64,000 nt of DNA from Lachnospiraceae bacterium (lineage in GTDB: Bacteria; Bacillota; Clostridia; Lachnospirales; Lachnospiraceae). Each line of letters starts with the position of its first letter. Position 1 is the stretch's first letter. This document shows, in pieces, positions 2,902 to 17,536 of the stretch. The position numbers and the translations under genes are program-made. Below the pieces are notes generated by a model that was given only the letters and a program-made list of their open reading frames with translations, did no database searches and was not told the DNA's origin. The stretch spans positions 51,790 through 115,789 of the forward strand of contig JAZUGQ010000053.1 of assembly GCA_045641285.1 (NCBI GenBank), given 5' to 3'.

Positions 2902-4278
2902 ATGGAAAATTATTTGATGAACAAAAAAGTGGCCGTCCATACGCTCGGTTGCAAGGTAAATACCTGCGAATCGGAAGCAATGCGGCAAATGCTGCGGGAC
3001 GCCGGATGCGTTTTTACGGAGTTTGAGTCGGAGGCGGATATTTATCTGATACATACATGCACGGTGACCAATATTGCCGACCGGAAAACAAGGCAAATGC
3101 TGCATCGTGCCAGAAGTCAGGCCCCGAATGCGGTCATTGCGGCGGTCGGATGTTATGTGCAGGAGAGATATGCCGAGCATTTGGAGGACGACAGCGTGGA
3201 TGTGCTGGTCGGAAACCGGCACAAAGGGGAGATTGTCACCCTGTTAAATGAAGCACTGCGGAACCGGGCATTGGGAAACAACAAAACGATTGTGCGGGTG
3301 GACCGGGATGACGGTCTGCTGACCTATGAAACGCTGCGGGAGGTTCATTCCGAAGAACGGGTGCGGGCATTTGTCAAAGTACAGGACGGCTGCAATCAGT
3401 TCTGCAGTTATTGCATCATCCCGTTTGCCAGAGGCCGAATCTGTTCCCGACCCGAGCAGGAGGTTCTGTCCGAAGTCAGGGCCCTGGTGGACAACGGTGT
3501 AAAGGAAGTGGTAATAACCGGAATTCATTTGTCTTCTTACGGATTGGAACGATACAGTGTGCGGGAACAGGCTGCTTTGAAAACCGATTTCGGAGAATTG
3601 CCCCTTCTGACGCTTTTGAAGAAAATCGATGCCGTCCCGGGACTTCGCAGACTGAGGCTCGGCTCTCTGGAACCGAGAATCGTGACGCCGGAATTTGCTA
3701 AGGAACTGGCGGGGCTGAAAACCATTTGCCCGCAGTTTCATCTGTCGCTGCAAAGCGGATGCGACCGGATTCTTGCCAAAATGAACCGGAAGTATACGAC
3801 TGCGGAATATGCCGAATGTGCGGCGGCACTTCGGAACGCATTTGACGATCCGGCACTGACAACGGATATTATTGCCGGATTTCCCGGAGAGACGGAAGAG
3901 GACTTTCAAACCACGTGCGAATATGCAAAACGGATTCGGTTCGCGCAGATTCACATTTTCCCGTATTCGAGACGGAAAGGTACCGTTGCGGACGCCATGA
4001 AGGAGCAGCTCACCGAAGCCGTGAAAAAGGAGCGGGCGGGCCGGCTTGCGAAGATTGAAACGGAACTTCGGCTCGGATATCGGGAGAAACACCTTGAACG
4101 AACCGCCGATGTTCTGTTCGAGGAACAGGTCGAAATCGACGGAACCACATACTATCGTGGTTTCAGCAGAGAGTATATCCCATATATCGTGGAATCGAAA
4201 AACTGCCTGATTAATGAAGAACGGCTTGTACAAGCAGTGAAAATGATGCCGGACGGGACGCTTTTATCAATAATTTAG
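2902..4278 (+). CDS. mtaB: MiaB-like radical-SAM methylthiotransferase (MtaB type)
   Basis: 458 aa. N-terminal UPF0004 Cys triad (HTLGCKVN.., HTCTVT). Radical-SAM CNQFCSYC motif. C-terminal TRAM-like region. Confidence 0.85.
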   Translation: MENYLMNKKVAVHTLGCKVNTCESEAMRQMLRDAGCVFTEFESEADIYLIHTCTVTNIADRKTRQMLHRARSQAPNAVIAAVGCYVQERYAEHLEDDSVDVLVGNRHKGEIVTLLNEALRNRALGNNKTIVRVDRDDGLLTYETLREVHSEERVRAFVKVQDGCNQFCSYCIIPFARGRICSRPEQEVLSEVRALVDNGVKEVVITGIHLSSYGLERYSVREQAALKTDFGELPLLTLLKKIDAVPGLRRLRLGSLEPRIVTPEFAKELAGLKTICPQFHLSLQSGCDRILAKMNRKYTTAEYAECAAALRNAFDDPALTTDIIAGFPGETEEDFQTTCEYAKRIRFAQIHIFPYSRRKGTVADAMKEQLTEAVKKERAGRLAKIETELRLGYREKHLERTADVLFEEQVEIDGTTYYRGFSREYIPYIVESKNCLINEERLVQAVKMMPDGTLLSII

Positions 4279-4415
4279 TTGCTATTTTCGGGAATTTGGA
4301 GTAAAATGTCATTGTATAGTACTGTATACTGTGTTAGGTGTATGCAAATATACGGATTTCTGCGGAAATCCAAAAAGGGAAGAAATAATGTATTACATTT
4401 GAGGAGGAAAGTGCG

Positions 4416-4670
4416 ATGACTAACAATACGGTGAATTTTACATCCCCGGAACATTCAAGCGAAAGAATTCATGAGGTGATGAACCTGGTGTATATGGCAC
4501 TTCGGGAAAAAGGATATAACCCGACAGCTCAGATTGTCGGTTATCTGATGAGTGGGGACCCGACTTATATTACCAGCCACATGAATGCAAGAAGCGCAAT
4601 CGCGAGAGTGGAACGGGATGAGATTATTGAGGAACTGGTAAAGTTGTATCTGACCACTTTGGAGCGATAA
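4416..4670 (+). CDS. ireB: IreB family regulatory phosphoprotein (UPF0297/YrzL)
   Basis: 84 aa. Motif [24 protein letters not shown]. Precedes ruvX as in Bacillus. Confidence 0.85.
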
Positions 4671-4684
4671 CAGGAAGGATGTTC

Positions 4685-5170
4685 ATGGACGAATTGCGAT
4701 TACTGGGATTGGATTACGGCGCCGCAACTGTGGGAGTTGCGGGAAGTGACGGTCTGTTTCTGACCGCACAGCCGTTGGAAGTCATTCGGAGAACTCACGA
4801 GAACAAGCTGCGTCAAACGTACCAGAGAATCGAGGAGATTATTCGGGAACGCGGAATTCACGCACTGGTTGTCGGCTATCCGAAGAAACTGGACAATTCC
4901 GTTGGTGAACGGGCCGAAAAATCCGAAGCGTTTGCGGCGGATCTGAAACGCCGTACCGGTTTGCCGGTCATTTTATGGGATGAACGTCTGACCACGGTGG
5001 AAGCACACCGGATTCTGGATTCGGAAGAACATGATTACCGAAAGCAGGCAATGGTGATCGATAAGCTTGCGGCGGTTATCATTTTACAGTCATATATGGA
5101 TTATCTGACCAACAATCCGTCGGAGAAAGAAGCATTGATGGGACAGATAACAGGTACGGAGGAAGCATGA
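4685..5170 (+). CDS. ruvX: Holliday junction resolvase-like nuclease RuvX (YqgF)
   Basis: YqgF motifs LLGLDYG and [14 protein letters not shown]. The ATG at 4685 is better spaced from GGAAGG than the ATG at 4679. Confidence 0.88.
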
Positions 5171-5427
5171 GCGATACGATTACGGCGGTGGAATTCACGG
5201 ATGATGAAGGAAATGTCATCAAAATGGAAGTTCTCGCACAGACGAAACAGAACGATACGGGATATCTTTTGGTGAAGGATCCCGATGAAGATATTGCATA
5301 TATCATGAAAGAGGTTACGGATGACGAAGACAGCCTGACCTATGTCATGGTAGAGGACGATGCGGAAATGGAAGCCATCGGCGACGTGTTTGAGGAACTG
5401 ATGGAAGATTATGACCTGGAGTCCTAG
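5167..5427 (+). CDS. DUF1292 family protein (YrzB-like)
   Basis: 86 aa and acidic. The pattern [14 protein letters not shown]...YLLV is typical of DUF1292. Conserved position after ruvX. Confidence 0.8.
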
Positions 5428-7111: not shown

Positions 7112-7570
7112 ATGAAGAAGAAAAAGAAAAAATTGAATACCGGTAAATATGTCAGATCGCTTCTCGGCAGTGTTGTATATATAGGACTGGTTATCGTATT
7201 TTATGTATTGGCAGTTCTGGGAATTATTCTCGGAATAAAGTATGCAAGACCGTTCGGACGATTGATTTTCGGCAATTATGCGGTATCCGATTATGCGAAC
7301 GAGAAGGAAATGAGCGTCGAAATCCGTGTCGGTGACTCGACTCAGGACGTGGCAAAGAGACTGGAATCCGAGAAAATCATTTCCGACTGGATGTCCTTTT
7401 ACACGAAAGTAAAATTGCAGAAAATGAATATCATCCCGGGCGTATATACACTGAAAGACAGCATGTCCTATGATCAGATTCTTGACATTATCGCCGTTGA
7501 TACGGAAGTTCAGCTGAGTGAAGAGGAACTTCGGGAGTTGGAAGAAAAGGAAAAGTTAGGATTGGATTAG
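7112..7570 (+). CDS. membrane protein with a MltG/YceG-like N-terminal domain only (no catalytic domain)
   Basis: 152 aa. Lys-rich N-terminus, one TM segment (VVYIGLVIVFYVLAVLGIILGI), then a LysM-like segment IRVGDSTQDVAKRLESEKII...IPGVYTL. Occupies the yrrL/mltG slot of the conserved block. Confidence 0.55.
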   Translation: MKKKKKKLNTGKYVRSLLGSVVYIGLVIVFYVLAVLGIILGIKYARPFGRLIFGNYAVSDYANEKEMSVEIRVGDSTQDVAKRLESEKIISDWMSFYTKVKLQKMNIIPGVYTLKDSMSYDQILDIIAVDTEVQLSEEELRELEEKEKLGLD

Positions 7571-7572
7571 CC

Positions 7573-8241
7573 ATGATAGATTCATTGTTGGTCAATCCGC
7601 ATATTGCGGACTATGTCGCCTCTCTTGTCGGAGACCTTCCGGAATGGCTGGAAGAGGCGGAACAGAAGGCAAGACGGGAAGAAGTCCCGATTATTCGCAA
7701 AGAGGCACAGGGACTGTTACAGTTCTTTCTGGCGGCAAAGAAACCGACGGAAATACTGGAAATCGGAACTGCGGTCGGATTTTCCGCAAGTCTGATGGCA
7801 TATTACACGAATTTTGAGGTGCCGATTACCACAATCGAAAAGGTACCGGCCAGAATTCGGGAAGCAACGGAACGGTTTCAAAGCCGCAGCGAATTGTCCT
7901 GTATCACGCTGATTCCGGGAGATGCCGAGGCCGTGCTGACAGAACTGGAAGCAGACGGAAACAGATATTCCTTCATTTTTCTGGATGCCGCGAAGGCACA
8001 ATATCCCGCCTATCTAAGTCATTTGAAACATATGATGAAGGACGGAGCCATCCTGATAACCGACAATATTTTGCAGGAAGGCAGTCTTGCGGAATCCAAG
8101 TTTACGATTACCAGACGGGATCGCACCATTCATATGAGAATGCGTGAGTTTGTGGAATCCCTGTTTCATGATGATCATTTTACAAGTACACTGCTGCCGG
8201 TCGGTGACGGCATGACGGTCAGTGTGTATTCAGACCGATAA
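7573..8241 (+). CDS. class I SAM-dependent O-methyltransferase (YrrM/TrmR-like)
   Basis: 222 aa. SAM motif ILEIGTAVGFS and FIFLDAAK. Synteny with the U32 peptidase gene. Confidence 0.82.
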   Translation: MIDSLLVNPHIADYVASLVGDLPEWLEEAEQKARREEVPIIRKEAQGLLQFFLAAKKPTEILEIGTAVGFSASLMAYYTNFEVPITTIEKVPARIREATERFQSRSELSCITLIPGDAEAVLTELEADGNRYSFIFLDAAKAQYPAYLSHLKHMMKDGAILITDNILQEGSLAESKFTITRRDRTIHMRMREFVESLFHDDHFTSTLLPVGDGMTVSVYSDR

Positions 8242-8253
8242 TTGGGAGGAAAT

Positions 8254-9474
8254 ATGCTGGAATTACTGGTACCGGCCGGTTCCCCGGAGGTATTGCGAAC
8301 CGCGATTCGATACGGAGCCGATGCGGTATATATCGGCGGCGAACTGTATGGACTGCGAGCAAAAGCAAAGAATTTTTCCAAAGACGATATTCGCGAGGGA
8401 ATTCGCCTCTGTCATGAAAATGGGAAGAAACTGTATATTACAGCCAACATAACGGCGCACAACGGAGATCTTCCGGGAATTCGGGAATATTTTAACGAGC
8501 TGAAGGAACTGAAACCGGATGCCGTGATTATTTCTGACCCCGGAGTTTTTATGATTGCCAGGGAAATTTTACAGGATGATGTGGATATTCATATCAGCAC
8601 ACAGGCGAACAACGTCAATTACAACACCTTCCTGTTCTGGAATTCGCTCGGAGCGAAGCGGGTTGTCGGCGGACGGGAACTGTCTCTGCAGGAAATTGCG
8701 GAAATCCGTCGTCATATTCCGGATGATATGGAAATCGAATGCTTTGTTCACGGAGCAATGTGCATTTCCTATTCGGGACGGTGCCTGCTGTCCAATTATC
8801 TGACCGGTCGGGATGCGAATCTCGGCGCATGCACGCATCCCTGCAGATGGAAATATTATCTCATGGAGGAAACAAGGCCCGGCGAATATTTTCCCGTTGA
8901 GGAAAATGAGCGGGGGACGTACATTTTCAACTCCAAGGATTTATGCATGATCGAGCATATACCGGATCTGATTGCGGCCGGAATCAACAGTTTCAAGATT
9001 GAGGGACGCATGAAGACGGCGCTGTATGTTGCGGTAGTTGCGAGAACATACCGAAAAGCTATCGATGATTTTCTGGAAGATCCGGAGCTGTATCGAAAGA
9101 ATCTGGATTGGTACCGGAAAGAAATCGCAAGCTGCACCTATCGGGAATATACGACCGGATTCTATTACGGAAAACCCGATTCCGACGCTCAGATTTATGA
9201 TGCCAATACCTATACATGCAATGCGGTATATTTGGGACGCATTCAGTCGGTAAACGGCTATGATGCCGTATTTGAACAGAAAAACAAGTTCCTCGTCGGC
9301 GATGAAATCGAACTGATGAGACCGAACGGAGACAATATCAAAGCCATCGTCCGGGCAATGAAGGATGACGAGGGCAATGACATGGAGTCCTGCCCGCATT
9401 CCAGACAAATCATAACCGTCACACTGTCCGAACTGCCGGAAGAGGGCGATATCATGAGAATGGAAATGAAGTGA
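8254..9474 (+). CDS. peptidase U32 family protein (YrrO/TrhP-like)
   Basis: N-terminus MLELLVPAGS. U32 signature E.FVHGAMCISYSGRCLLS. GGGAGG RBS upstream of the ATG at 8254. Confidence 0.85.
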   Translation: MLELLVPAGSPEVLRTAIRYGADAVYIGGELYGLRAKAKNFSKDDIREGIRLCHENGKKLYITANITAHNGDLPGIREYFNELKELKPDAVIISDPGVFMIAREILQDDVDIHISTQANNVNYNTFLFWNSLGAKRVVGGRELSLQEIAEIRRHIPDDMEIECFVHGAMCISYSGRCLLSNYLTGRDANLGACTHPCRWKYYLMEETRPGEYFPVEENERGTYIFNSKDLCMIEHIPDLIAAGINSFKIEGRMKTALYVAVVARTYRKAIDDFLEDPELYRKNLDWYRKEIASCTYREYTTGFYYGKPDSDAQIYDANTYTCNAVYLGRIQSVNGYDAVFEQKNKFLVGDEIELMRPNGDNIKAIVRAMKDDEGNDMESCPHSRQIITVTLSELPEEGDIMRMEMK

Positions 9475-9491
9475 CTTTCTGAAAGGATCGT

Positions 9492-10820
9492 ATGAACATT
9501 AAGCGTATCTTACAACTGATGAGTCTTTTGACGATGCTTCTTCTGGTTACGGGATGTCAAACGGCACCGGTCGGGACAAACGGATCCGGTACGACGACAC
9601 CCGGCGGCGGAAATACCATATCCATTCCGGTTACCTGCACACCGACGCCGTTGCCGTATCATAAGGCTCAGGAGACGGATCTGAAGGCCAAGGCATTTTC
9701 CTTTGTTCCGACGACGGCCGACCATTTGCAAACAATATGGGAATCGGCGGAAGCGGAGACCATCGAAACGGTCATCAGCGGAGAAAGCGAAATGACGGCG
9801 GAGTTTAAGGCAATCTGGGAAGAAAAATTCCTGAATGTTCTGGTACATGTCATGAATGATGCCACGCCCGATACGGATGCCGATACCTTTTGGAGACGGG
9901 ACGGAATCATTTTATATATCAACGAAGACGGCCGGCGAAACAAAAATCTGTCGGTCGGCGATGCCTATTATCTGATTGACCGGAACGGTAAGGTTGATTA
10001 CGGCTTCGGAGCATCCAAAGACATTCAGACCTCCGCATTTTCGGACGGCACCGAGAGCGGATATTATATTGTTGCGAAGGTTCCGTTAATGCAGAATGTC
10101 GGTCATTTGGATATGCAAATCGGGTTTGATGTCCGCGTCAACAATGCGGAAGAGCAGAAATGCATTCATGCGATTCAATGGAAATCCGACAACAAAAACT
10201 GCGAAAAGGATTTCCGGAAAATCGGTTTGCTGACATTTGACACGATGATACGAAAATCCGAAGATTCCAAAATGGTATATCGCAGGATTCCGATTCGTAT
10301 CGACGGAAAACGCGACGATACCTGGGATATGTGCACCAGCTATACATTATTGAACAGAGTATACGGAAATAAAGGCGTGTCCGGAAGCTTTAAGGCAAGT
10401 TACGATGACCGTCATTTGTATTTATATGTCAAGGTTGAGGACAGAACGCCGTTTACGGACGGAGATCTGAACACCCGAAAGGACGGTGTCGAGATTTTCC
10501 TGAATGAATCCGGAAGCAAGGCGGAAACGTACGGCGACGGGGATCAGCATTATATGTTTTTGAGAAACGGTCAGTGTGTATGCGGAAACGGTGCGGACGA
10601 ATCGTTCGTACAGTACCTTGTCACGGAAACCGAAACCGGCTATGTATTGGAAGCATGCTTTGATTGGGGACTTCAAACGCATGACGGCAGTATCGGTTTT
10701 GATATCCGGATTAACGATTCTCAAAGCAGCGGAACACGTGACAGTATTTTGCAATGGAGCGATACCGGTATGAATACGCATAAATGCCTTACCGGAATCG
10801 GAACCTTATTTTTGGATTAG
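9492..10820 (+). CDS. lipoprotein with two CBM9-like carbohydrate-binding domains
   Basis: Lipobox LLLVTGC. Two repeats of the CBM9-type pattern (FKAIWEEKFLNVLVHVMND...WRRDGIILYINEDG and FKASYDDRHLYLYVKVED...RKDGVEIFLNESG). No catalytic domain recognised. Confidence 0.7.
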   Translation: MNIKRILQLMSLLTMLLLVTGCQTAPVGTNGSGTTTPGGGNTISIPVTCTPTPLPYHKAQETDLKAKAFSFVPTTADHLQTIWESAEAETIETVISGESEMTAEFKAIWEEKFLNVLVHVMNDATPDTDADTFWRRDGIILYINEDGRRNKNLSVGDAYYLIDRNGKVDYGFGASKDIQTSAFSDGTESGYYIVAKVPLMQNVGHLDMQIGFDVRVNNAEEQKCIHAIQWKSDNKNCEKDFRKIGLLTFDTMIRKSEDSKMVYRRIPIRIDGKRDDTWDMCTSYTLLNRVYGNKGVSGSFKASYDDRHLYLYVKVEDRTPFTDGDLNTRKDGVEIFLNESGSKAETYGDGDQHYMFLRNGQCVCGNGADESFVQYLVTETETGYVLEACFDWGLQTHDGSIGFDIRINDSQSSGTRDSILQWSDTGMNTHKCLTGIGTLFLD

Positions 10821-10829
10821 TTTTTTTGT

Positions 10830-10877
10830 CTCCGATAGTATCCGCTGCATGACGCGCGGTGCTGTCGGAGTTTTTTT
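10830..10877 (+). terminator. rho-independent terminator after the lipoprotein gene
   Basis: Stem ctccgatag (10830-10838) pairs with ctgtcggag (10862-10870), including one G-U pair. Followed by T7 (10871-10877). Confidence 0.55.
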
Positions 10878-10892
10878 GAGAAAGGAGACGCC

Positions 10893-12440
10893 ATGATCAG
10901 CTTGTTTTCGCTGTCGGAACCGATGCCGTTTGAGCAGGTAAAGATGCTGCCGGAACCGGAATATTTTCATGATCTGAATCTGGATCAGTATGTCGAAATT
11001 GTGGCACAGTATTTTGACGAGAAGGAACTGCGGCCGTATTTTTATTTTGAATCCAAGGATTATGAAACCGCAAAATACCGTCAGGAAATCGTCAATGATC
11101 TGAAAAATCCGGACATTCTGGAAGCCGTTCAGAATTTTATCGGAGAAATCAGCGAAGCGGTACGCTGCAATATCAATGCCGAAAATGTTTCCATGAACAT
11201 TCAGAAATGCAAATGGAGACTGGATTGCATGACCAATTATTATAAGGCCATGGAAAATCTTTGCATTGCATTTAACACAACGCCTCCGAAATCCCGGGCA
11301 TTTTATAATCTGCATCAGGAACTGTTCCATTTGCTGAATTCCGCGGAAATCAAAAAAATCCGTGCGACGGCGAAGACCATCGCGGAAGAGTTTCAGAATC
11401 TGAAATTCCATCTGACCATCAATAACGAGAAGGCCACCTTCGATTTGCTGTACAACCTGAAAGATTACTGCTTCCCGGTTCGGAATGCGTTTGAACACGG
11501 GGAAGCGGATCCGACACCGCAGATTTTCAGGGAATCTCCGTTTGACAATATCGAATTGTCCGATTTGGAAATTTTCGTACTGAAGCAGCTGGAAAAGCAG
11601 AATCTGACGCTGTTCCGGCAGTTGGAAACATTTGGCGGAACATACAAAAACATCATTTCACAGGATATTCTGGATCTGATTCGCGAGCTTCGGTTCTATA
11701 TGTTCAATATCGAATATATGGATCGTCTGAAAGCGTACGGATATCCGTTTACGCAGCCGTTGATTGTCAAAGACAAGGAATTGTATATGGATGACTGCTT
11801 CGACATTGTTCTGGCAATCAAGAACATGAAGCTGGAGAAGGAAGTCATTTACAATGATATTATGAAAGCCAATTTTGAAAAGGCAATCATTGTTACCGGA
11901 CCGAATCAGGGCGGTAAGACAACTCTGGCAAGAGCGTTCGGTCAGTGTTTTTACTTCGGCATGATGGGACTGAATGTTCCCGGAAGCGTATGCAAACTGC
12001 CGTATATCAGCAATATTTTCACTCATTTTGCCAATGAAGAGGGAACCGAAGGAATTGACGGACGTCTGTATAATGAGCTTGTCCGCCTGAGACAGATGTT
12101 CGGGAAAATCGACAATCGAAGCATCGTCATTTTAAATGAGCTGTTCACGTCGGCACCCGCAATGGATGCCTTGTCGATGAGCCGGGACCTGATGAAGCGG
12201 CTGCTTTTGCAAAATGCGATCTGCTTTTATGTGACACATACTTACGAAATCGCGACGGATCTGGATGATTACGTCAGTCTGGTGGCAACCGTCGTGGAGG
12301 ACGGAAGTTATCGGAGAACCTATCGGATTGTCCGCAAGAGAGCGGACGGAAACGCATTTGCCAATTCGATTGTCACGAAATACAAACTGGATTACAGCCA
12401 CATCAACTATCGGCTGAGCAAGGGACAGAGAAAGAATTAA
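10893..12440 (+). CDS. MutS-related ATPase (MutS domain V only; no mismatch-binding or nuclease domain), paralog A
   Basis: 515 aa. Walker A GPNQGGKTT (11898-11924). MutS-type region SIVILNELFTS, with Asn in place of the Walker B Asp (AAT 12135-12137). TH motif FYVTHTYE. Confidence 0.8.
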   Translation: MISLFSLSEPMPFEQVKMLPEPEYFHDLNLDQYVEIVAQYFDEKELRPYFYFESKDYETAKYRQEIVNDLKNPDILEAVQNFIGEISEAVRCNINAENVSMNIQKCKWRLDCMTNYYKAMENLCIAFNTTPPKSRAFYNLHQELFHLLNSAEIKKIRATAKTIAEEFQNLKFHLTINNEKATFDLLYNLKDYCFPVRNAFEHGEADPTPQIFRESPFDNIELSDLEIFVLKQLEKQNLTLFRQLETFGGTYKNIISQDILDLIRELRFYMFNIEYMDRLKAYGYPFTQPLIVKDKELYMDDCFDIVLAIKNMKLEKEVIYNDIMKANFEKAIIVTGPNQGGKTTLARAFGQCFYFGMMGLNVPGSVCKLPYISNIFTHFANEEGTEGIDGRLYNELVRLRQMFGKIDNRSIVILNELFTSAPAMDALSMSRDLMKRLLLQNAICFYVTHTYEIATDLDDYVSLVATVVEDGSYRRTYRIVRKRADGNAFANSIVTKYKLDYSHINYRLSKGQRKN

Positions 12441-12457
12441 CGACGGGGTTTACGGGT

Positions 12458-13981
12458 ATGAAAATCAACTTACTGAATAAACCGGGATACGTTCCGGGTC
12501 AGACAATTGCACCGTTTGAAAAGGATCTGTTCCAGGATTTGGTGCTTGATAATATTTTGCAGATTATGGCAAAAAACGACAAATACATATATCAGCAGTG
12601 CCGTAACATTTTGCTGACGCCGCTCACCGATTATGATAATATCGCATATCGTCAGAGTTCCATTCGGGATGCCATACGAAACAAAAAAACGATTCTGTCA
12701 TTGTATGCGACGGTTGCCGAAGTCGTTACCGATTTGAGCAATTTGAAAACAAAAATGAGGAAAGACGGAGAGTCGTCGTCCGCGAACGTCAAGCTGATCA
12801 ATTCCATTGAACTGCTGGATTTGCTGTCCACCGGTCTGGAACGCCTGAAAAAGGAAATTGTCGATACGTACGGTCATTTCACGGGAACCATTTTTCGGGA
12901 TTTTTATGATGATTTCTTAAAAGAGTTTGACACCGATTTCATGAAACTCGTGCACGATCGAACGAAAGCATTGCAAATGATGGAAAGCGGCGGAGAAATC
13001 CAAATCAGCGGTGTCATCGGCAAAGGACTGAAAATGGACGGAATGTTTGTAAATTCCATCGCCAAATACAAGGAAACGCGAAAACAGGATATTATAAACT
13101 CCCTGTTTTTGACCCGCGTCAATAAAAATGAAATCCGGATTTCCTATAACGACATCAGTCTGAATGCGGATTGCAAGCAGCTGGAAAGCCATGCGCTTTT
13201 GCATGTTGCATCGTGCTTTGATGAATTTTCGAAAGAAATCGGCAAACTGTTCGATTCTCTTCGAAGCCAGCTCGCATTTTTCTACGGATGCTGCAACCTC
13301 TACAGCCAGATGCACAACCTGCTGTTTCCGGTCAGCTTCCCGGATATTGATAAAAAGAATATCGCGATTCAGGCCGAGGACCTGTATGATTTGAGCTTCG
13401 CGCTGAACAGCAGCAAAATACCGACCACCAACCGGCTGGAGGGCGAGGATACGCTGATTTATCTGATTACCGGAACCAACCACGGCGGAAAAACGACCTT
13501 TATACGAAGCGTTTCGGTTGCCCAGCTGATGGCACAGTGCGGCATGTTTGTCCCCGCATCGAACATGAAAACTCATTTGTTTAACGGATTTTACACGCAT
13601 TTTGTCAGAAAAGAAGATGTGACGCTGAATTCCGGAAAGCTGGAGGAAGAACTGAATCGTCTCAGCAAAATTGTTGATTTCATGAAGCCGGGATCCATCA
13701 TTTTCCTAAATGAATCCTTTGCGACGACTTCGGAACGCGAAGGGGCATTGATTGCGGAAGACGTCATTAAGGCCTTTATGGACAATAATGTAACCTGCTT
13801 CTTTGTCACGCACATTTATACCTATGCGAAGAAAGCGTATGACGAGAAGATGCCGAGGACGCAGTTCCTGCAGGCGGAACGGAATACGGAAGGTGAGCGA
13901 ACCTATCATTTGACAAGCGGAGAACCGGGAATTACCGGATACGGAATGGAACTATATAACGAAATTGTCGGAGGAGAGTAA
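12458..13981 (+). CDS. MutS-related ATPase (MutS domain V only), paralog B
   Basis: 507 aa. Walker A GTNHGGKTT (13472-). SIIFLNESFATTS, again with Asn (13709-13711) in place of the Walker B Asp. FFVTHIY. Starts 17 nt after paralog A. Confidence 0.8.
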   Translation: MKINLLNKPGYVPGQTIAPFEKDLFQDLVLDNILQIMAKNDKYIYQQCRNILLTPLTDYDNIAYRQSSIRDAIRNKKTILSLYATVAEVVTDLSNLKTKMRKDGESSSANVKLINSIELLDLLSTGLERLKKEIVDTYGHFTGTIFRDFYDDFLKEFDTDFMKLVHDRTKALQMMESGGEIQISGVIGKGLKMDGMFVNSIAKYKETRKQDIINSLFLTRVNKNEIRISYNDISLNADCKQLESHALLHVASCFDEFSKEIGKLFDSLRSQLAFFYGCCNLYSQMHNLLFPVSFPDIDKKNIAIQAEDLYDLSFALNSSKIPTTNRLEGEDTLIYLITGTNHGGKTTFIRSVSVAQLMAQCGMFVPASNMKTHLFNGFYTHFVRKEDVTLNSGKLEEELNRLSKIVDFMKPGSIIFLNESFATTSEREGALIAEDVIKAFMDNNVTCFFVTHIYTYAKKAYDEKMPRTQFLQAERNTEGERTYHLTSGEPGITGYGMELYNEIVGGE

Positions 13982-14065
13982 GCCGGCACGGTGATGGGAA
14001 CGAACGGAAGCACGGACACGACGTGAATTTCGTTTCGGGGAATGCTGAAATTCTGAATTTTGGGC

Positions 14066-14094
14066 AAAAAAAACCCCGGGACAAAATCCCGGGG
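14066..14094 (-). terminator. rho-independent terminator downstream of tRNA-Leu
   Basis: ccccggg (14074-14080) pairs with cccgggg (14088-14094), 7-nt loop. On the minus strand it is followed by T8. Confidence 0.72.
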
Positions 14095-14096
14095 AA

Positions 14097-14180
14097 TGCG
14101 GATGGCGGGACTTGAACCCGCACGAGTGATAAGCCCGTCAGATTTTGAGTCTGATGCGTCTGCCATTCCGCCACATCCGC
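14097..14180 (-). tRNA. tRNA-Leu (anticodon CAA), class II with long variable arm
   Basis: Hand-folded. Acceptor GCGGATG/CATCCGC plus discriminator A. Anticodon stem TCAGA/TCTGA with loop CTCAAAA. Long variable arm. T-arm CGGG-TTCAAGT-CCCG. CCA is not encoded. Confidence 0.93.
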
Positions 14181-14191
14181 GAACATTTGGC

Positions 14192-14220
14192 ATTTTACCA
14201 TGAATTTTTTTATTTTGCAA
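14192..14220 (-). promoter_or_regulatory. sigma-A-type promoter for tRNA-Leu
   Basis: Minus strand: TTGCAA (14220-14215), 17-nt spacer, TGgTAAAAT extended -10 (hexamer 14197-14192). About 11 nt upstream of the tRNA 5' end. Confidence 0.5.
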
Positions 14221-14265
14221 GAGGAAAATCAAAGAATTCCAAGAAATCATAAAAGGAGGAGTTGT

Positions 14266-14757
14266 ATGGATTGCAAAGAAGCAAGAATGCATAGCAAAAG
14301 TTATCTTTTGCATGAGCTTCCGGAAGAAATTATGGGACCGTATATCGATCATATTCAGAATTGCACGGAATGCAAAGACGAACTGCTGACGGATTATTCC
14401 ATTACGACGGCTCTGAAACAGCTCTCCGCCAATGAGGATTTTTATGATAATTATTATTTGCAACTGGAAAATAAACTGAAACGGTCAGAAACCTATGTCA
14501 AAAAGAGAAAGCAGAAATTCGTGATGAAAACAATCGGTGCCGCGATTATGTTCTGCATCATCGGCTGCTTTATTACAACCAGGAAAGAACCGGTCTATTA
14601 TCGGTTTTTGCCCGAAAATACGCGGAAAGAATCGCTGGCCATCAATTTCTACGGTGTGCCAAAAGCATCCGATCCGATTCGAAATACCATTTTGGAATAT
14701 AACAGTCAGGTCATTGACAAAATCAGACAGGAAGCTGACGCAAACAAAGGAGAATAG
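14266..14757 (+). CDS. zf-HC2 (anti-sigma-like) single-pass membrane protein
   Basis: AAAGGAGGA RBS. H-x3-C-x2-C motif HIQNCTEC. One TM segment (IGAAIMFCIIGCFITT). No sigma factor gene adjacent. Confidence 0.65.
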   Translation: MDCKEARMHSKSYLLHELPEEIMGPYIDHIQNCTECKDELLTDYSITTALKQLSANEDFYDNYYLQLENKLKRSETYVKKRKQKFVMKTIGAAIMFCIIGCFITTRKEPVYYRFLPENTRKESLAINFYGVPKASDPIRNTILEYNSQVIDKIRQEADANKGE

Positions 14758-14761
14758 CGGA

Positions 14762-17536
14762 ATGAACGATGAGTTACTGCTTATCATAGACGGATCGTCT
14801 TTGCTGTCGACCCAGTTTTACGGAAATCTTCCCCCGGCGGTACTGATGGGCAAAACGCCGGAAGAAAAAGAAGCCGGATTTCCGAAAATCATGCAAACGT
14901 CCACCGGAGTTTACACGAACGGAATTTTCGGCTTTCTGCGGTATTTATTGAAAATGCTGGAACAGCAAAAACCGACGCATCTTGCCGTAACATGGGATTT
15001 GACAAGAGATACTTTCCGGAGAGAGATGTATTCGGAGTATAAAGGGAACCGTTCCGAAACCATGGTTCCGTTAAAAGAACAGTTCCGGCTCTGCCAGGAA
15101 ATTCTCGGCCGAATCGGAATCCGTCAATATATGTCGGAAACCTACGAAGCCGATGATTACAGCGGCTCCCTGACGAGACGCTTTGAACAGGAAATCCCCG
15201 TTGCCATCGTAACGAAAGACCATGATTATCTGCAGCTCGCCGATGACAATACGACAATCTGGCTTCTGCAGACCGCACAGAAAAAAGCTGACGAATTATT
15301 TGACAAATACCATATCAAGAAGAAAGAAACCAATTGCCCGGAGAAAGCATTTCCGATGACTCCGGAACGGATTCGGCAGGAATTCGGTGTGACTCCTGCG
15401 GAAATTGCGGAACTGAAGGGCCTTCAGGGCGATTCGTCCGATAACATCAAAGGAGTTCCGGGAATCGGCCCGCAAACCGCCGTGGCACTGATTGCTTATT
15501 ACAAGACCGTGGATCGTTTGTATGAAGCGATTCATGAGGCCGGACCGGACGGTGAAAAGAATCTGGCACAGTTTATGAAGGACACGCTCGGAATCAAACG
15601 AAACCCGATTCCGACACTGACCAAAACGTCCGATACGGAACTCTGCGGAGAACAGGCGGCCAGACTCAGTGAGAAGCTGGCAACCATAAAGCAGGATATT
15701 CCGATTGAAGAAACGTTGGACAATCTGAAAATCCAAATCGATTACCGGGAATTTGCCAAGGTTCTTCACGAATTGGAAATCACCAGTATTACATTGCCGC
15801 AAACGGAACCGGCTGCCGAGCGTAAGCCGGTCGCTATCTGCTATATTTCGGACCGTACGGACTTGGATCGTAACCGGGCGGAAATATTGTCCTGTCAGGG
15901 TCCTGTGGGACTGGCCAGAAAGACCCGCAAAAATGCTCAGGAAGAATGGCAGATTGCATTCGGACTGTCGGCCGATGAGTCCTTCATTACGCTGGCTTCG
16001 GATTCGACGGTGTACTTCATTTCCGATTCGGATCCCGGCATGCACCGGGATGCCGTAACGCTTTTGACGGACCTGTGCGGACAGACGAGACTCTATGCAT
16101 TTCACGTCAAGGAAGAATGGTGTGATTTGCCTTATACGGAAAATTTATGGGATGTTTCCCTGATGGATTATCTGCTGAGACCGTTGACCACCCATCATGA
16201 ATATGAGGATGTATTTGCGGAATGGATGCCGAATGCCGCAACATCGTCGGAAGACGAAGCGGAAGCCGTGGACGCCAGAGAACTCGGCATTTTGCTGGAT
16301 GAAAAACTGACGGAGAACGGCGGGCACGAGTTGTATCAGACAATCGAACAACCGCTCATGTGGGTTCTTCATGACATGGAAAATGCGGGCATTTTGGTTG
16401 ATCGCAGCATACTTCGGGAATATGCGGACAGTTTGCAAAAGAAGATGGAAGAGGAACAGGCACGGATTTACGAACTGGCGGAGTGCTCGTTCAATATCAA
16501 CTCGCCGAAACAGCTCGGGGAAGTATTATTCGAAAAAATGAATCTGCCGTACCCGAAGAAAACGAAAAAGGGCTACAGTACGTCAGTGGAAATTCTGGAA
16601 ACGCTGACCGAGTACCCGATTGTGGAACACATCCTTCTGTATCGTCAGTATTCCAAACTCCTGTCCACGTATGCGGAGGGATTACAGACCTGCATTTCCG
16701 CGGACGGACGAATTCATACAAACTATCAGCAGATGGTAACGGCAACCGGACGGCTGAGCTCCACCGAGCCGAATCTGCAAAACATTCCGATTCGTTCCGA
16801 ACTCGGACGGGAAATCCGGAAAGCGTTTGTGCCCAAGCCGGGATTCGTTTTTGTCGATGCCGACTATTCCCAGATCGAGCTTCGTCTGATGGCCCATATG
16901 TCCGGCGATACGGAATTGCAAAAAGCTTATAACAGTGCGGCCGATATTCACAGACTGACGGCCAGTCAGGTATTTAACGTACCGTTTGACGATGTTACGC
17001 CGGAACAGAGAAGCGCTGCCAAAGCAGTGAATTTCGGTATTTTGTACGGAATCAGTTCCTTTTCGCTGTCAAAGGATTTGGGAATTACGAAATCCATGGC
17101 GGAACGGTATATACAGGATTATTTTGCAAGATTTCCGAAAATGAAGGAATATTTGGACAAAACCGTGGCGTCCGCAAAGGAACTCGGATATGTGACAACA
17201 ATGTTCGGACGCAGAAGACCGATTCCGGAACTGACGTCCTCGGTGTATACGCAGAGAAGCTTCGGCGAACGTGTTGCCATGAACTCCCCGATTCAGGGAA
17301 CGGCCGCGGATATTATGAAGATTGCCATGATTAAGGTATATCAGGCGTTACAAAAGTCGGGAACAAAAGCAAAAATGCTGATTCAGGTGCATGACGAACT
17401 GTTGCTCGAAGTGCCGCAAGAGGAAGCGGAGTCCGTATCCGAACTGCTTCGTGAGGCGATGGAAACGGCGGTTCTTCTGACGGTACCGTTGGAAGCGGAT
17501 GTGCAAAGCGGAATGACCTGGTATGATGCCAAATAA
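14762..17536 (+). CDS. polA: DNA polymerase I
   Basis: N-terminus MNDELLLIIDGSSLL (5'-nuclease). Pol motifs DYSQIELR, KAVNFGILYG, QVHDEL. The 14537 ORF start is a spurious upstream extension overlapping the previous gene. Confidence 0.95.
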   Translation: MNDELLLIIDGSSLLSTQFYGNLPPAVLMGKTPEEKEAGFPKIMQTSTGVYTNGIFGFLRYLLKMLEQQKPTHLAVTWDLTRDTFRREMYSEYKGNRSETMVPLKEQFRLCQEILGRIGIRQYMSETYEADDYSGSLTRRFEQEIPVAIVTKDHDYLQLADDNTTIWLLQTAQKKADELFDKYHIKKKETNCPEKAFPMTPERIRQEFGVTPAEIAELKGLQGDSSDNIKGVPGIGPQTAVALIAYYKTVDRLYEAIHEAGPDGEKNLAQFMKDTLGIKRNPIPTLTKTSDTELCGEQAARLSEKLATIKQDIPIEETLDNLKIQIDYREFAKVLHELEITSITLPQTEPAAERKPVAICYISDRTDLDRNRAEILSCQGPVGLARKTRKNAQEEWQIAFGLSADESFITLASDSTVYFISDSDPGMHRDAVTLLTDLCGQTRLYAFHVKEEWCDLPYTENLWDVSLMDYLLRPLTTHHEYEDVFAEWMPNAATSSEDEAEAVDARELGILLDEKLTENGGHELYQTIEQPLMWVLHDMENAGILVDRSILREYADSLQKKMEEEQARIYELAECSFNINSPKQLGEVLFEKMNLPYPKKTKKGYSTSVEILETLTEYPIVEHILLYRQYSKLLSTYAEGLQTCISADGRIHTNYQQMVTATGRLSSTEPNLQNIPIRSELGREIRKAFVPKPGFVFVDADYSQIELRLMAHMSGDTELQKAYNSAADIHRLTASQVFNVPFDDVTPEQRSAAKAVNFGILYGISSFSLSKDLGITKSMAERYIQDYFARFPKMKEYLDKTVASAKELGYVTTMFGRRRPIPELTSSVYTQRSFGERVAMNSPIQGTAADIMKIAMIKVYQALQKSGTKAKMLIQVHDELLLEVPQEEAESVSELLREAMETAVLLTVPLEADVQSGMTWYDAK

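Follow-up and report, generated by a model that had tools for sequence, protein, structure and literature searches.

The MutS4A/MutS4B gene pair of a Lachnospiraceae contig: a family with an Asn-Glu Walker B motif, its link to fluoride riboswitches, and a riboswitch-free clade

Two adjacent genes for MutS-related ATPases are found in a stretch of 64,000 nucleotides (nt) from Lachnospiraceae bacterium (NCBI GenBank assembly GCA_045641285.1, contig JAZUGQ010000053.1, positions 51,790 to 115,789 of the forward strand), which is referred to as the window. By sequence comparison we assign them to MutS4A and MutS4B, a family that was named in 2007 and is biochemically uncharacterized; the pair is not a new system. 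For the window taken alone, the observation was correct, but the family to which the pair belongs was already known. MutS-like genes have been on lists of genes with fluoride riboswitches since 2010. Three new results join these two strands and make the function testable: an Asn-Glu Walker B motif is a family-wide hallmark, the 'mutS' of the fluoride regulon corresponds to the MutS4A/MutS4B pair, and there is a riboswitch-free clade of gut and rumen Lachnospiraceae, to which the window pair belongs. An earlier interpretation of the window, made from the sequence alone (the sequence-only reading), had contained neither the fluoride riboswitch link of the family nor the evidence that the Asn is family-wide and not a local feature.

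The MutS4A and MutS4B genes of the window

The sequence-only reading had described two adjacent genes for proteins of 515 and 507 amino acids (aa), separated by a gap of 17 nt, and the open reading frames (ORFs) and the sequence agree with this description. The coordinates of the genes and their motifs are listed in Table 1. Both ORFs have hundreds of full-length homologs, with E-values down to 0, and can be taken as genuine genes which did not arise by chance. They are clearly separated by profiles of the two types, the scores with the own and the opposite profile being 671 versus 157 bits for the A protein and 650 versus 143 bits for the B protein. A profile search revealed no further MutS-like ORFs in the 64-kb window.

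In both proteins, MutS_V is the sole Pfam domain (2.2e-14 for A, 1e-20 for B), accompanied in MutS4B by an additional weak, sub-threshold match to MutS_III. Pfam detected no MutS_I, MutS_II, Smr, or nuclease domain in either protein, and both end shortly past domain V according to Pfam and the structure models. Single-chain AlphaFold models were computed from family alignments (predicted local distance difference test [pLDDT] 86.5 for A and 87.4 for B). Both superpose on MutS from Escherichia coli and Taq, on human MSH2 and MSH3, and on MutS2, over ~500-580 columns with E-values of ~1e-17 to 1e-19. Because of these superpositions, the N-terminal half of the models, which is helical and includes a small beta element, is equated with the lever and clamp of MutS (domains III and IV). 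The architecture proposed previously, namely a clamp-like helical region and an ATP-binding cassette (ABC) ATPase domain with no domain I, Smr, or nuclease domain, is thus confirmed by Pfam and by the AlphaFold superposition. The two proteins had also been described as highly diverged from each other, and their sequence identity is indeed only 28%, limited to 180 aa of the ATPase domain.

Table 1. Features of the MutS4A/MutS4B locus in the window
Feature	Position	Strand	Description	Evidence
Hairpin and U7 tract	10830..10877	+	in the 72-nt leader, ends ~15 nt before the MutS4A ATG	
MutS4A ribosome-binding site		+	AGGAG, 7 nt 5' of the ATG	
MutS4A	10893..12440	+	515 aa; MutS domains III (lever), IV (clamp), V (ABC-type ATPase)	ORF list, Pfam, profile, fold
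MutS4A Walker A	11898..11924	+	GPNQGGKTT, aa 336-344	
MutS4A Walker B region	12123..12155	+	IVILNELFTSA, aa 411-421; Asn415 in place of the Mg2+-coordinating Asp; catalytic Glu416 kept	
MutS4A H-loop	12231..12248	+	VTHTYE, aa 447-452; His is aa 449, nt 12237-12239	
A-stop to B-start spacer	12441..12457	+	17 nt, TAA-cgacggggtttacgggt-ATG; 4-nt overlap commoner in the family	
MutS4B	12458..13981	+	507 aa; MutS domains III, IV, V	ORF list, Pfam, profile, fold
MutS4B Walker A	13472..13498	+	GTNHGGKTT, aa 339-347	
MutS4B Walker B region	13697..13729	+	IIFLNESFATT, aa 414-424; Asn418 in place of Asp; Glu419 kept	
MutS4B H-loop	13805..13822	+	VTHIYT, aa 450-455	
tRNA-Leu(CAA)	14097-14180	-	neighboring landmark; same place in loci L001 and L002	ARAGORN, Rfam

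Note: Positions refer to the window. L001 and L002 are syntenic loci from other Lachnospiraceae genera (see below).

Assignment to the MutS4 family

MutS4A and MutS4B have been described as adjacent tandem genes with overlapping stop and start codons, and no function was given (Lin, Nei & Ma, 2007; NAR 35:7591; PMC2190696). Homologs of the window pair were found in Firmicutes, Actinobacteria, Chloroflexi, Proteobacteria, Verrucomicrobia, and archaea. Among them are the founding organisms of MutS4 or near relatives (Thermoplasma volcanium, Thermoanaerobacterium); MutS4B matches the T. volcanium protein P0208 with an E-value of 2e-67 across 95% of its length. The proteins from the founding lineages sort cleanly into A or B type by profile and carry the same motifs, including Asn-Glu.

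The window pair shares with MutS4A/MutS4B the restriction to lever, clamp, and domain V (without domains I and II), the arrangement of paralogs with A directly upstream of B, the protein lengths, the Walker A signatures (GPNQGGKTT in A, GxNxGGK[ST]T in B), and the Asn-Glu Walker B motif, and it groups with the founding members. It differs in that the signature overlap of stop and start codon is replaced by the 17-nt spacer. The NCBIfam equivalogs MutS1, MutS2, and KamC gave scores of 37-71 bits against cut-offs of 300-642. In detail, the A and B proteins reached 45 and 59 bits with canonical MutS1 (TIGR01070; cut-off 642), 37 and 60 bits with MutS2 (TIGR01069; cut-off 400), and 53 and 65 bits with KamC (NF052383; cut-off 300), which is the best NCBIfam match for A and the second-best for B. 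The sequence-only reading had named no family for the pair and had considered its function to be unknown. The pair is not an unrecognized novelty, because it maps to MutS4A/MutS4B; the role of this family, however, is still uncharacterized.

MutS4 is widespread, not rare. When 1.84 billion cluster representatives were searched by profile, ~2,550 clusters were obtained at E ≤ 1e-30, and at least 569 loci came from a scan in which each GTDB species was represented by one genome. The 80 best-scoring of these loci were analyzed, and the proportions reported below describe MutS4 neighborhoods and not the fluoride regulon as a whole. In a neighbor-joining tree of concatenated A and B sequences, the family falls into two clades: a large multi-phylum clade (the main clade) and a clade confined to Lachnospiraceae.

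An Asn-Glu Walker B motif in both subunits

According to the sequence-only reading, the Mg2+-coordinating Asp of Walker B is exchanged for Asn in both proteins, and the GRGT loop which follows it in MutS is lost. The quoted motifs are found where they had been reported, and a profile alignment to solved structures supports the substitution. In the alignment of the B profile, the Asn occupies the column of the Walker B Asp, with the family consensus LiLlNEsFaaT facing LVLLDEVGRGT of Taq MutS and LVLIDELGSGT of MutS2. In the longer alignment, LiLlNEsFaaTnerEG stands opposite LVLLDEVGRGTSSLDG of Taq MutS and LVLIDELGSGTDPEEG of MutS2. The GRGT loop is absent from both proteins, and x-F-[STA]-[ST]-T takes its place throughout the family. 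The two proteins thus deviate from a canonical ABC-type ATPase site: Walker A Lys, catalytic Glu, and H-loop His are present in A and in B, but both have Asn in place of the Walker B Asp.

The Asn was encountered in 121/121 A-type and in 114/115 B-type homologs, in both subunits of all 66 complete genome pairs from both clades, and in ~136 of the 150 best representative clusters. The catalytic Glu is present in all of these A-type (121/121) and B-type (115/115) homologs, and it is conserved equally to the Asn, as are the Walker A Lys and the Phe two residues past the Glu. In the Walker A motif of the A type, G, P, N, Q, G, G, K, and the final T are found in 121/121 homologs and the first T in 120/121, while all 115 homologs of the B type share G, N, G, G, and K. 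To judge from these alignments, the Asn-Glu Walker B motif characterizes the whole MutS4 family in both subunits. The sequence-only reading had named, as a point that would speak against it, orthologs which mostly occur singly and with an intact Asp-Glu motif; no such ortholog was seen, and the observation stands. Invariant across many phyla are not only Walker A, the Asn, and the catalytic Glu but also numerous further residues, and we therefore take MutS4 to be under purifying selection and not to be decaying.

The sole experimental model of this change is the engineered variant D693N of E. coli MutS, in which the corresponding Asp of Walker B is exchanged for Asn (Lebbink et al., 2010; PMC2857095). 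Its Mg2+ pocket is empty (PDB 3k0s), the Kd for ATP is increased from 0.034 to 0.505 uM, equivalent to ~15-fold weaker binding, turnover is not stimulated by mismatched DNA, kcat increases steeply at high Mg2+, and mismatch repair is impaired in vivo (PMC2857095). In D693N, a laboratory mutation impairs a homodimeric mismatch-repair MutS in which domains I and II as well as the GRGT loop are present. In MutS4, by contrast, the Asn is a natural, invariant residue, and the next loop is remodeled.

Pairing of MutS4A and MutS4B

Among the 81 MutS4B genes from the 80 loci, 77 have MutS4A directly 5' on the same strand. Two of the other four are truncated by contig ends, one has MutS4A 4.5 kb upstream, and one is without a detectable A ORF. 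Stop and start codon overlap by 4 nt (ATGA, GTGA, or TTGA) in 59 of the 77 pairs. The overlap is absent from 18, including locus L002, a close relative of the window pair. It is thus a frequent but not a universal feature of MutS4, and the spacer of the window pair is a minority variant. The genes of a pair are usually translationally coupled.

In a mirror-tree comparison, the pairwise distances of A and B co-vary with r = 0.97 overall and with r = 0.92 within the main clade. Adjacency, overlap, and co-variation, together with the requirement of ABC ATPases for dimerization, support the view that A and B form an obligate heterodimer, an idea of the sequence-only reading which fits well with the comparative data. 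An asymmetry between the subunits points in the same direction: in nearly all main-clade pairs, the H-loop has Phe in A but His in B.

Natural A-B fusions were considered as Rosetta-stone evidence, but the two candidates (P0241, P0260) look like frameshift artifacts, with the C-terminus of A being an out-of-frame tail, and were rejected.

Three loci have an unusual arrangement. L045 carries two A/B pairs in tandem (7473-11449 and 11298-16246) with a riboswitch before the first pair only, and L034 carries two pairs in one locus (6-2041 and 9176-12179). L021 is the sole locus with A (3875-5413, with riboswitch) and B (9962-11512) apart; the gap of ~4.5 kb may be due to an insertion.

Fluoride riboswitches in the main clade

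Clustering of the neighboring genes revealed no syntenic partner gene, as no neighbor keeps its position or orientation throughout the 80 loci. The recurrent neighbor families, with the number of loci in parentheses, were dynamin-like GTPases with DUF6062 (22), enolase (19), Proton_antipo_M (19), MFS (18), CrcB (15), CBS+DUF190 (13), Usp (9), and Na+/H+ exchangers (9). As this gene set suggested a fluoride regulon, the loci were searched for the fluoride riboswitch. RF01734 was detected at the Rfam gathering threshold directly 5' of MutS4A in L044, L068, L059, L023, L012, L046, L047, and L075. In L044, the aptamer covers 8174-8238 and MutS4A starts at 8250; the corresponding positions in L068 are 8231-8294 and 8316.

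A covariance model, built here from 20 validated RF01734 matches, identified 119 fluoride aptamers across the 80 loci, whereas the window gave no match. An aptamer is located directly 5' of MutS4A in 36 of the 80 loci (32 when four weak matches are set aside), and 10 further loci have one more distantly upstream on the same strand. Riboswitch control is found in about 60% or more of the main-clade loci; in the tree, the riboswitch is nearly ubiquitous in this clade. MutS4A is the commonest first gene 3' of the aptamers (36 cases), followed by dynamin-like GTPases (8), HycD/NuoH-like subunits (7), Na+/H+ exchangers (6), MFS proteins (5), CrcB (3), and enolase (2).

Because RF01734 is found 5' of MutS4A, and because CrcB, Na+/H+ antiporters, and enolase are encoded in the same loci, we assign the MutS4 family, as represented by its main clade, to the fluoride-stress regulon. 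A gene labeled 'mutS' was listed downstream of crcB-motif RNAs by Weinberg et al. (2010; PMC2864571), and our comparison identifies this riboswitch-linked 'mutS' with the MutS4A/MutS4B pair. In the searchable literature, we found nothing that ties the fluoride riboswitch to MutS4, to MutS4 pairing, or to the Asn, and no paper with an explanation of what the MutS4 proteins do. The main-clade operons match the RF01734 regulon in being located directly downstream of the element, in islands which also code for CrcB, Na+/H+ antiporters, enolase, and hydrogenlyase-like membrane subunits. The window pair and its Lachnospiraceae relatives differ, having no RF01734.

Some loci are fluoride islands with many aptamers in the ~22 kb around the pair, and every aptamer is followed by another gene or operon: 10 in L018, 7 in L015, 6 in L044, and 5 each in L023 and L012. 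GTPases with Dynamin_N and DUF6062 are encoded within 6 kb of the MutS4 pair in 22 of the 80 loci (e.g., L030, 4863-7523; L042, 4083-5909; L015, 16813-18801). In 8 cases, such a gene is located directly 3' of a fluoride riboswitch. The GTPases keep a canonical DxxG motif. To our knowledge, dynamin-like GTPases have not been reported as a fluoride-regulated gene class; no literature search was aimed at them.

The riboswitch-free Lachnospiraceae clade and the setting of the window pair

The Lachnospiraceae clade consists of the window pair and 11 loci (L001, L002, L003, L005, L007, L008, L032, L041, L058, L077, and L080). It is divergent, with only ~30-35% sequence identity to the main clade. 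The covariance model detected no fluoride aptamer in any of these 11 loci, and Rfam revealed no element 5' of MutS4A in the seven which were rechecked (L001, L002, L003, L005, L007, L008, L032). The clades also differ in the H-loop of subunit A, which has Phe in 52/54 pairs of the fluoride-linked main clade but has kept His in 12/12 pairs of the Lachnospiraceae clade. Subunit B has His in all 66 complete pairs. The main clade thus probably has one degenerate ATP site, while the Lachnospiraceae clade may have two competent ones.

The window pair is located between the gene for a CBM9 lipoprotein and tRNA-Leu/PolA, in a housekeeping block which includes RuvX, RNase J, YceG, U32 peptidase, and CoaE. 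The upstream neighbors are RNase J, YceG, an O-methyltransferase, the U32 peptidase, and the CBM9 lipoprotein. Downstream are PolA, CoaE, an MBL hydrolase, DUF711, and a RelA/SpoT-like gene. The position beside tRNA-Leu and the absence of mutL among the neighbors, both pointed out in the sequence-only reading, agree with ARAGORN and the neighbor annotation, and no aminomutase genes are found within ±10 kb. The block is fully syntenic with L001 and L002, which represent two other Lachnospiraceae genera and have MutS4 proteins with 66-68% sequence identity to those of the window. Beyond such close relatives, no neighbor is common to the Lachnospiraceae clade. We interpret the window pair as a vertically inherited core gene pair that is uncoupled from the fluoride riboswitch. 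Its expression is probably not dependent on fluoride, and the pair may have changed its role.

The hairpin, the only element found in the leader of MutS4A (Table 1), has a folding energy of -29.8 kcal/mol (z = -3.95), and none of 200 shuffled sequences folded equally well. It has no Rfam match even at E ≤ 10, and its sequence is not conserved in L001 and L002. It represents no known riboswitch and probably serves the upstream gene for the CBM9 lipoprotein as an intrinsic terminator. There is no obvious promoter between the hairpin and the start of MutS4A; the pair may be expressed by read-through or from a promoter which overlaps the hairpin.

Proposed function and alternative explanations

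Our preferred interpretation, to which we assign a probability of roughly 60%, is that MutS4A and MutS4B form a heterodimeric clamp with weak Mg2+ sites which serves as an ATP switch on DNA or nucleoprotein, that the family acts in fluoride stress, and that the window copy is a riboswitch-free derivative. The obligate MutS-like heterodimer would have two composite ATP sites, and by analogy with D693N the natural Asn would cause Mg2+ to be held weakly at both. The dimer would then be a slow, Mg-sensitive ATP switch or clamp, not a motor, as is suggested by the empty Mg2+ pocket, the weaker ATP binding, and the lost stimulation by DNA of D693N. It is predicted to encircle DNA or another nucleic acid-protein substrate, neither recognizing mismatches nor cutting. 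The primary role of the family would be to mitigate fluoride toxicity.

Several points weigh against this interpretation. D693N provides an analogy from a distant paralog. DNA binding is predicted from the fold, and the tip of the clamp shows poor conservation as well as low pLDDT values. A-A or B-B homodimers may exist. The 80 loci were picked by MutS4B similarity and are not a random sample, 4 of the 36 adjacent aptamers score below the Rfam gathering threshold, and the tree is midpoint-rooted and has no support values. In the window itself, RF01734 was found neither at the gathering threshold nor at E ≤ 10 nor by our own model, and a profile generated from the CrcB ORFs of the loci detected no CrcB in the 64 kb. 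Because both are lacking, a fluoride role of the window copy is an extrapolation from the family.

A more specific proposal is that the Walker B Asn is itself an adaptation to fluoride: sites without tightly held Mg2+ would escape trapping as ADP-Mg-fluoride or would use the trapped state as a signal, so that MutS4AB keeps working on DNA or stalled nucleoprotein while ordinary P-loop NTPases are poisoned. This is in accordance with the riboswitch control of the family in most lineages, with the invariance of the Asn in both subunits, with the loss of Mg2+ retention that Asn causes in E. coli MutS, and with the exchange of the GRGT loop for a conserved x-F-[STA]-[ST]-T. However, NTPases which are encoded directly 3' of the same riboswitches keep their Asp (DTPG in dynamin-like GTPases, LDEP in an ABC ATPase), and the riboswitch-free Lachnospiraceae clade retains Asn-Glu unchanged. 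We thus consider the proposal unlikely. Equally doubtful is its evolutionary version, in which the Asn and the remodeled x-F-[ST]-[ST]-T loop evolved as an answer to fluoride and the Lachnospiraceae clade represents a takeover for a constitutive housekeeping role. Were the site indeed built for fluoride, MutS4AB would be the first NTPase with an active site made to resist or exploit Mg-fluoride trapping, and a clamp on DNA or stalled nucleoprotein would sustain a vital process while P-loop enzymes are poisoned.

MutS2 and the eukaryotic MSH4-MSH5 (MutS-II lineage) resemble MutS4 in being MutS-family clamps without the mismatch-binding domain I. MSH4-MSH5 is in addition an obligate heterodimer of diverged paralogs, and MutS2 illustrates that the scaffold can work on substrates other than mismatches, among them recombination intermediates and collided ribosomes. 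MutS2 differs from MutS4 in that it is homodimeric, carries an Smr nuclease at its C-terminus, and has retained the Asp-Glu motif; MSH4/5 are likewise expected to keep Asp-Glu, and neither MutS2 nor MSH4-MSH5 is linked to fluoride. MutS4AB might, in a similar way, promote or edit homologous recombination, its regulation by fluoride being incidental. Besides the matching fold and the absence of domain I, this is suggested by the sole functional study of MutS4 that we found, in which the MutS4 operon of M. yongonense was reported to raise the integration frequency of an rpoB fragment in M. smegmatis (Kim et al., 2017; PMC5742357). That result comes from a single heterologous overexpression experiment, however. 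No recombination genes recur beside the pair in the 80 loci, and the riboswitch control of most main-clade loci would be left unexplained, so that we see only a small chance for a role in recombination.

It is also conceivable, though quite improbable, that the substrate is not DNA and that the clamp/ATPase scaffold acts on ribosomes or on an enzyme, for example by freeing factors stalled by fluoride, which inhibits phosphoryl-transfer enzymes. MutS2 acts on collided ribosomes, and MutS2 from the collided-disome complex 7qv3 is among the matches to the model of A; both models match DNA-bound MutS and MSH proteins equally well, however. KamC, a MutS-domain-V ATPase of ~508 aa and thus similar to the MutS4 proteins, is annotated as lysine 5,6-aminomutase reactivase, a role outside DNA repair, and ranks high among the NCBIfam matches of A and B. 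Its scores are far below the cut-off, and neither kam genes (including kamDE) nor ribosome-rescue genes are found near the window pair.

A function in defense had been among the candidates of the sequence-only reading, but no evidence for it was found. Some defense systems use ABC/SMC-like ATPases, but PADLOC gave nothing beyond P-loop noise (E ≥ 3e-4), the weak matches to LmuB and NsnB (E 3e-4) being confined to the P-loop. The proteins have no nuclease or effector domains, and the pair is part of a housekeeping block with stable synteny across Lachnospiraceae genera and not of a defense island. An anti-phage or anti-plasmid module is thus highly improbable, and the same applies to a decaying, catalytically dead remnant, against which the purifying selection on residues that are invariant across many phyla argues.

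Additional observations in the window

Three further features of the window were noted. A tetrahydrofolate (THF) riboswitch aptamer (RF01831), unrelated to the pair, is located at 47355-47454 (+) and scores 99.8 bits against a gathering score of 36. Flanked by hisIE-like and rimP-nusA-infB genes, a stretch of low GC content (~32800-38000; GC 0.35-0.38 vs. ~0.47 elsewhere) has the appearance of an insertion acquired by horizontal transfer. It contains three ORFs without Pfam match (32845-33846, 33860-34456, 34556-35152) and a gene for a fused ABC-ATPase/FtsX-permease (35284-37971). A spike in AT-skew (0.32, positions 40001-42000) coincides with the 5' part of infB (40372-43515), which codes for IF-2, and is assumed to reflect a low-complexity N-terminal region of that protein.

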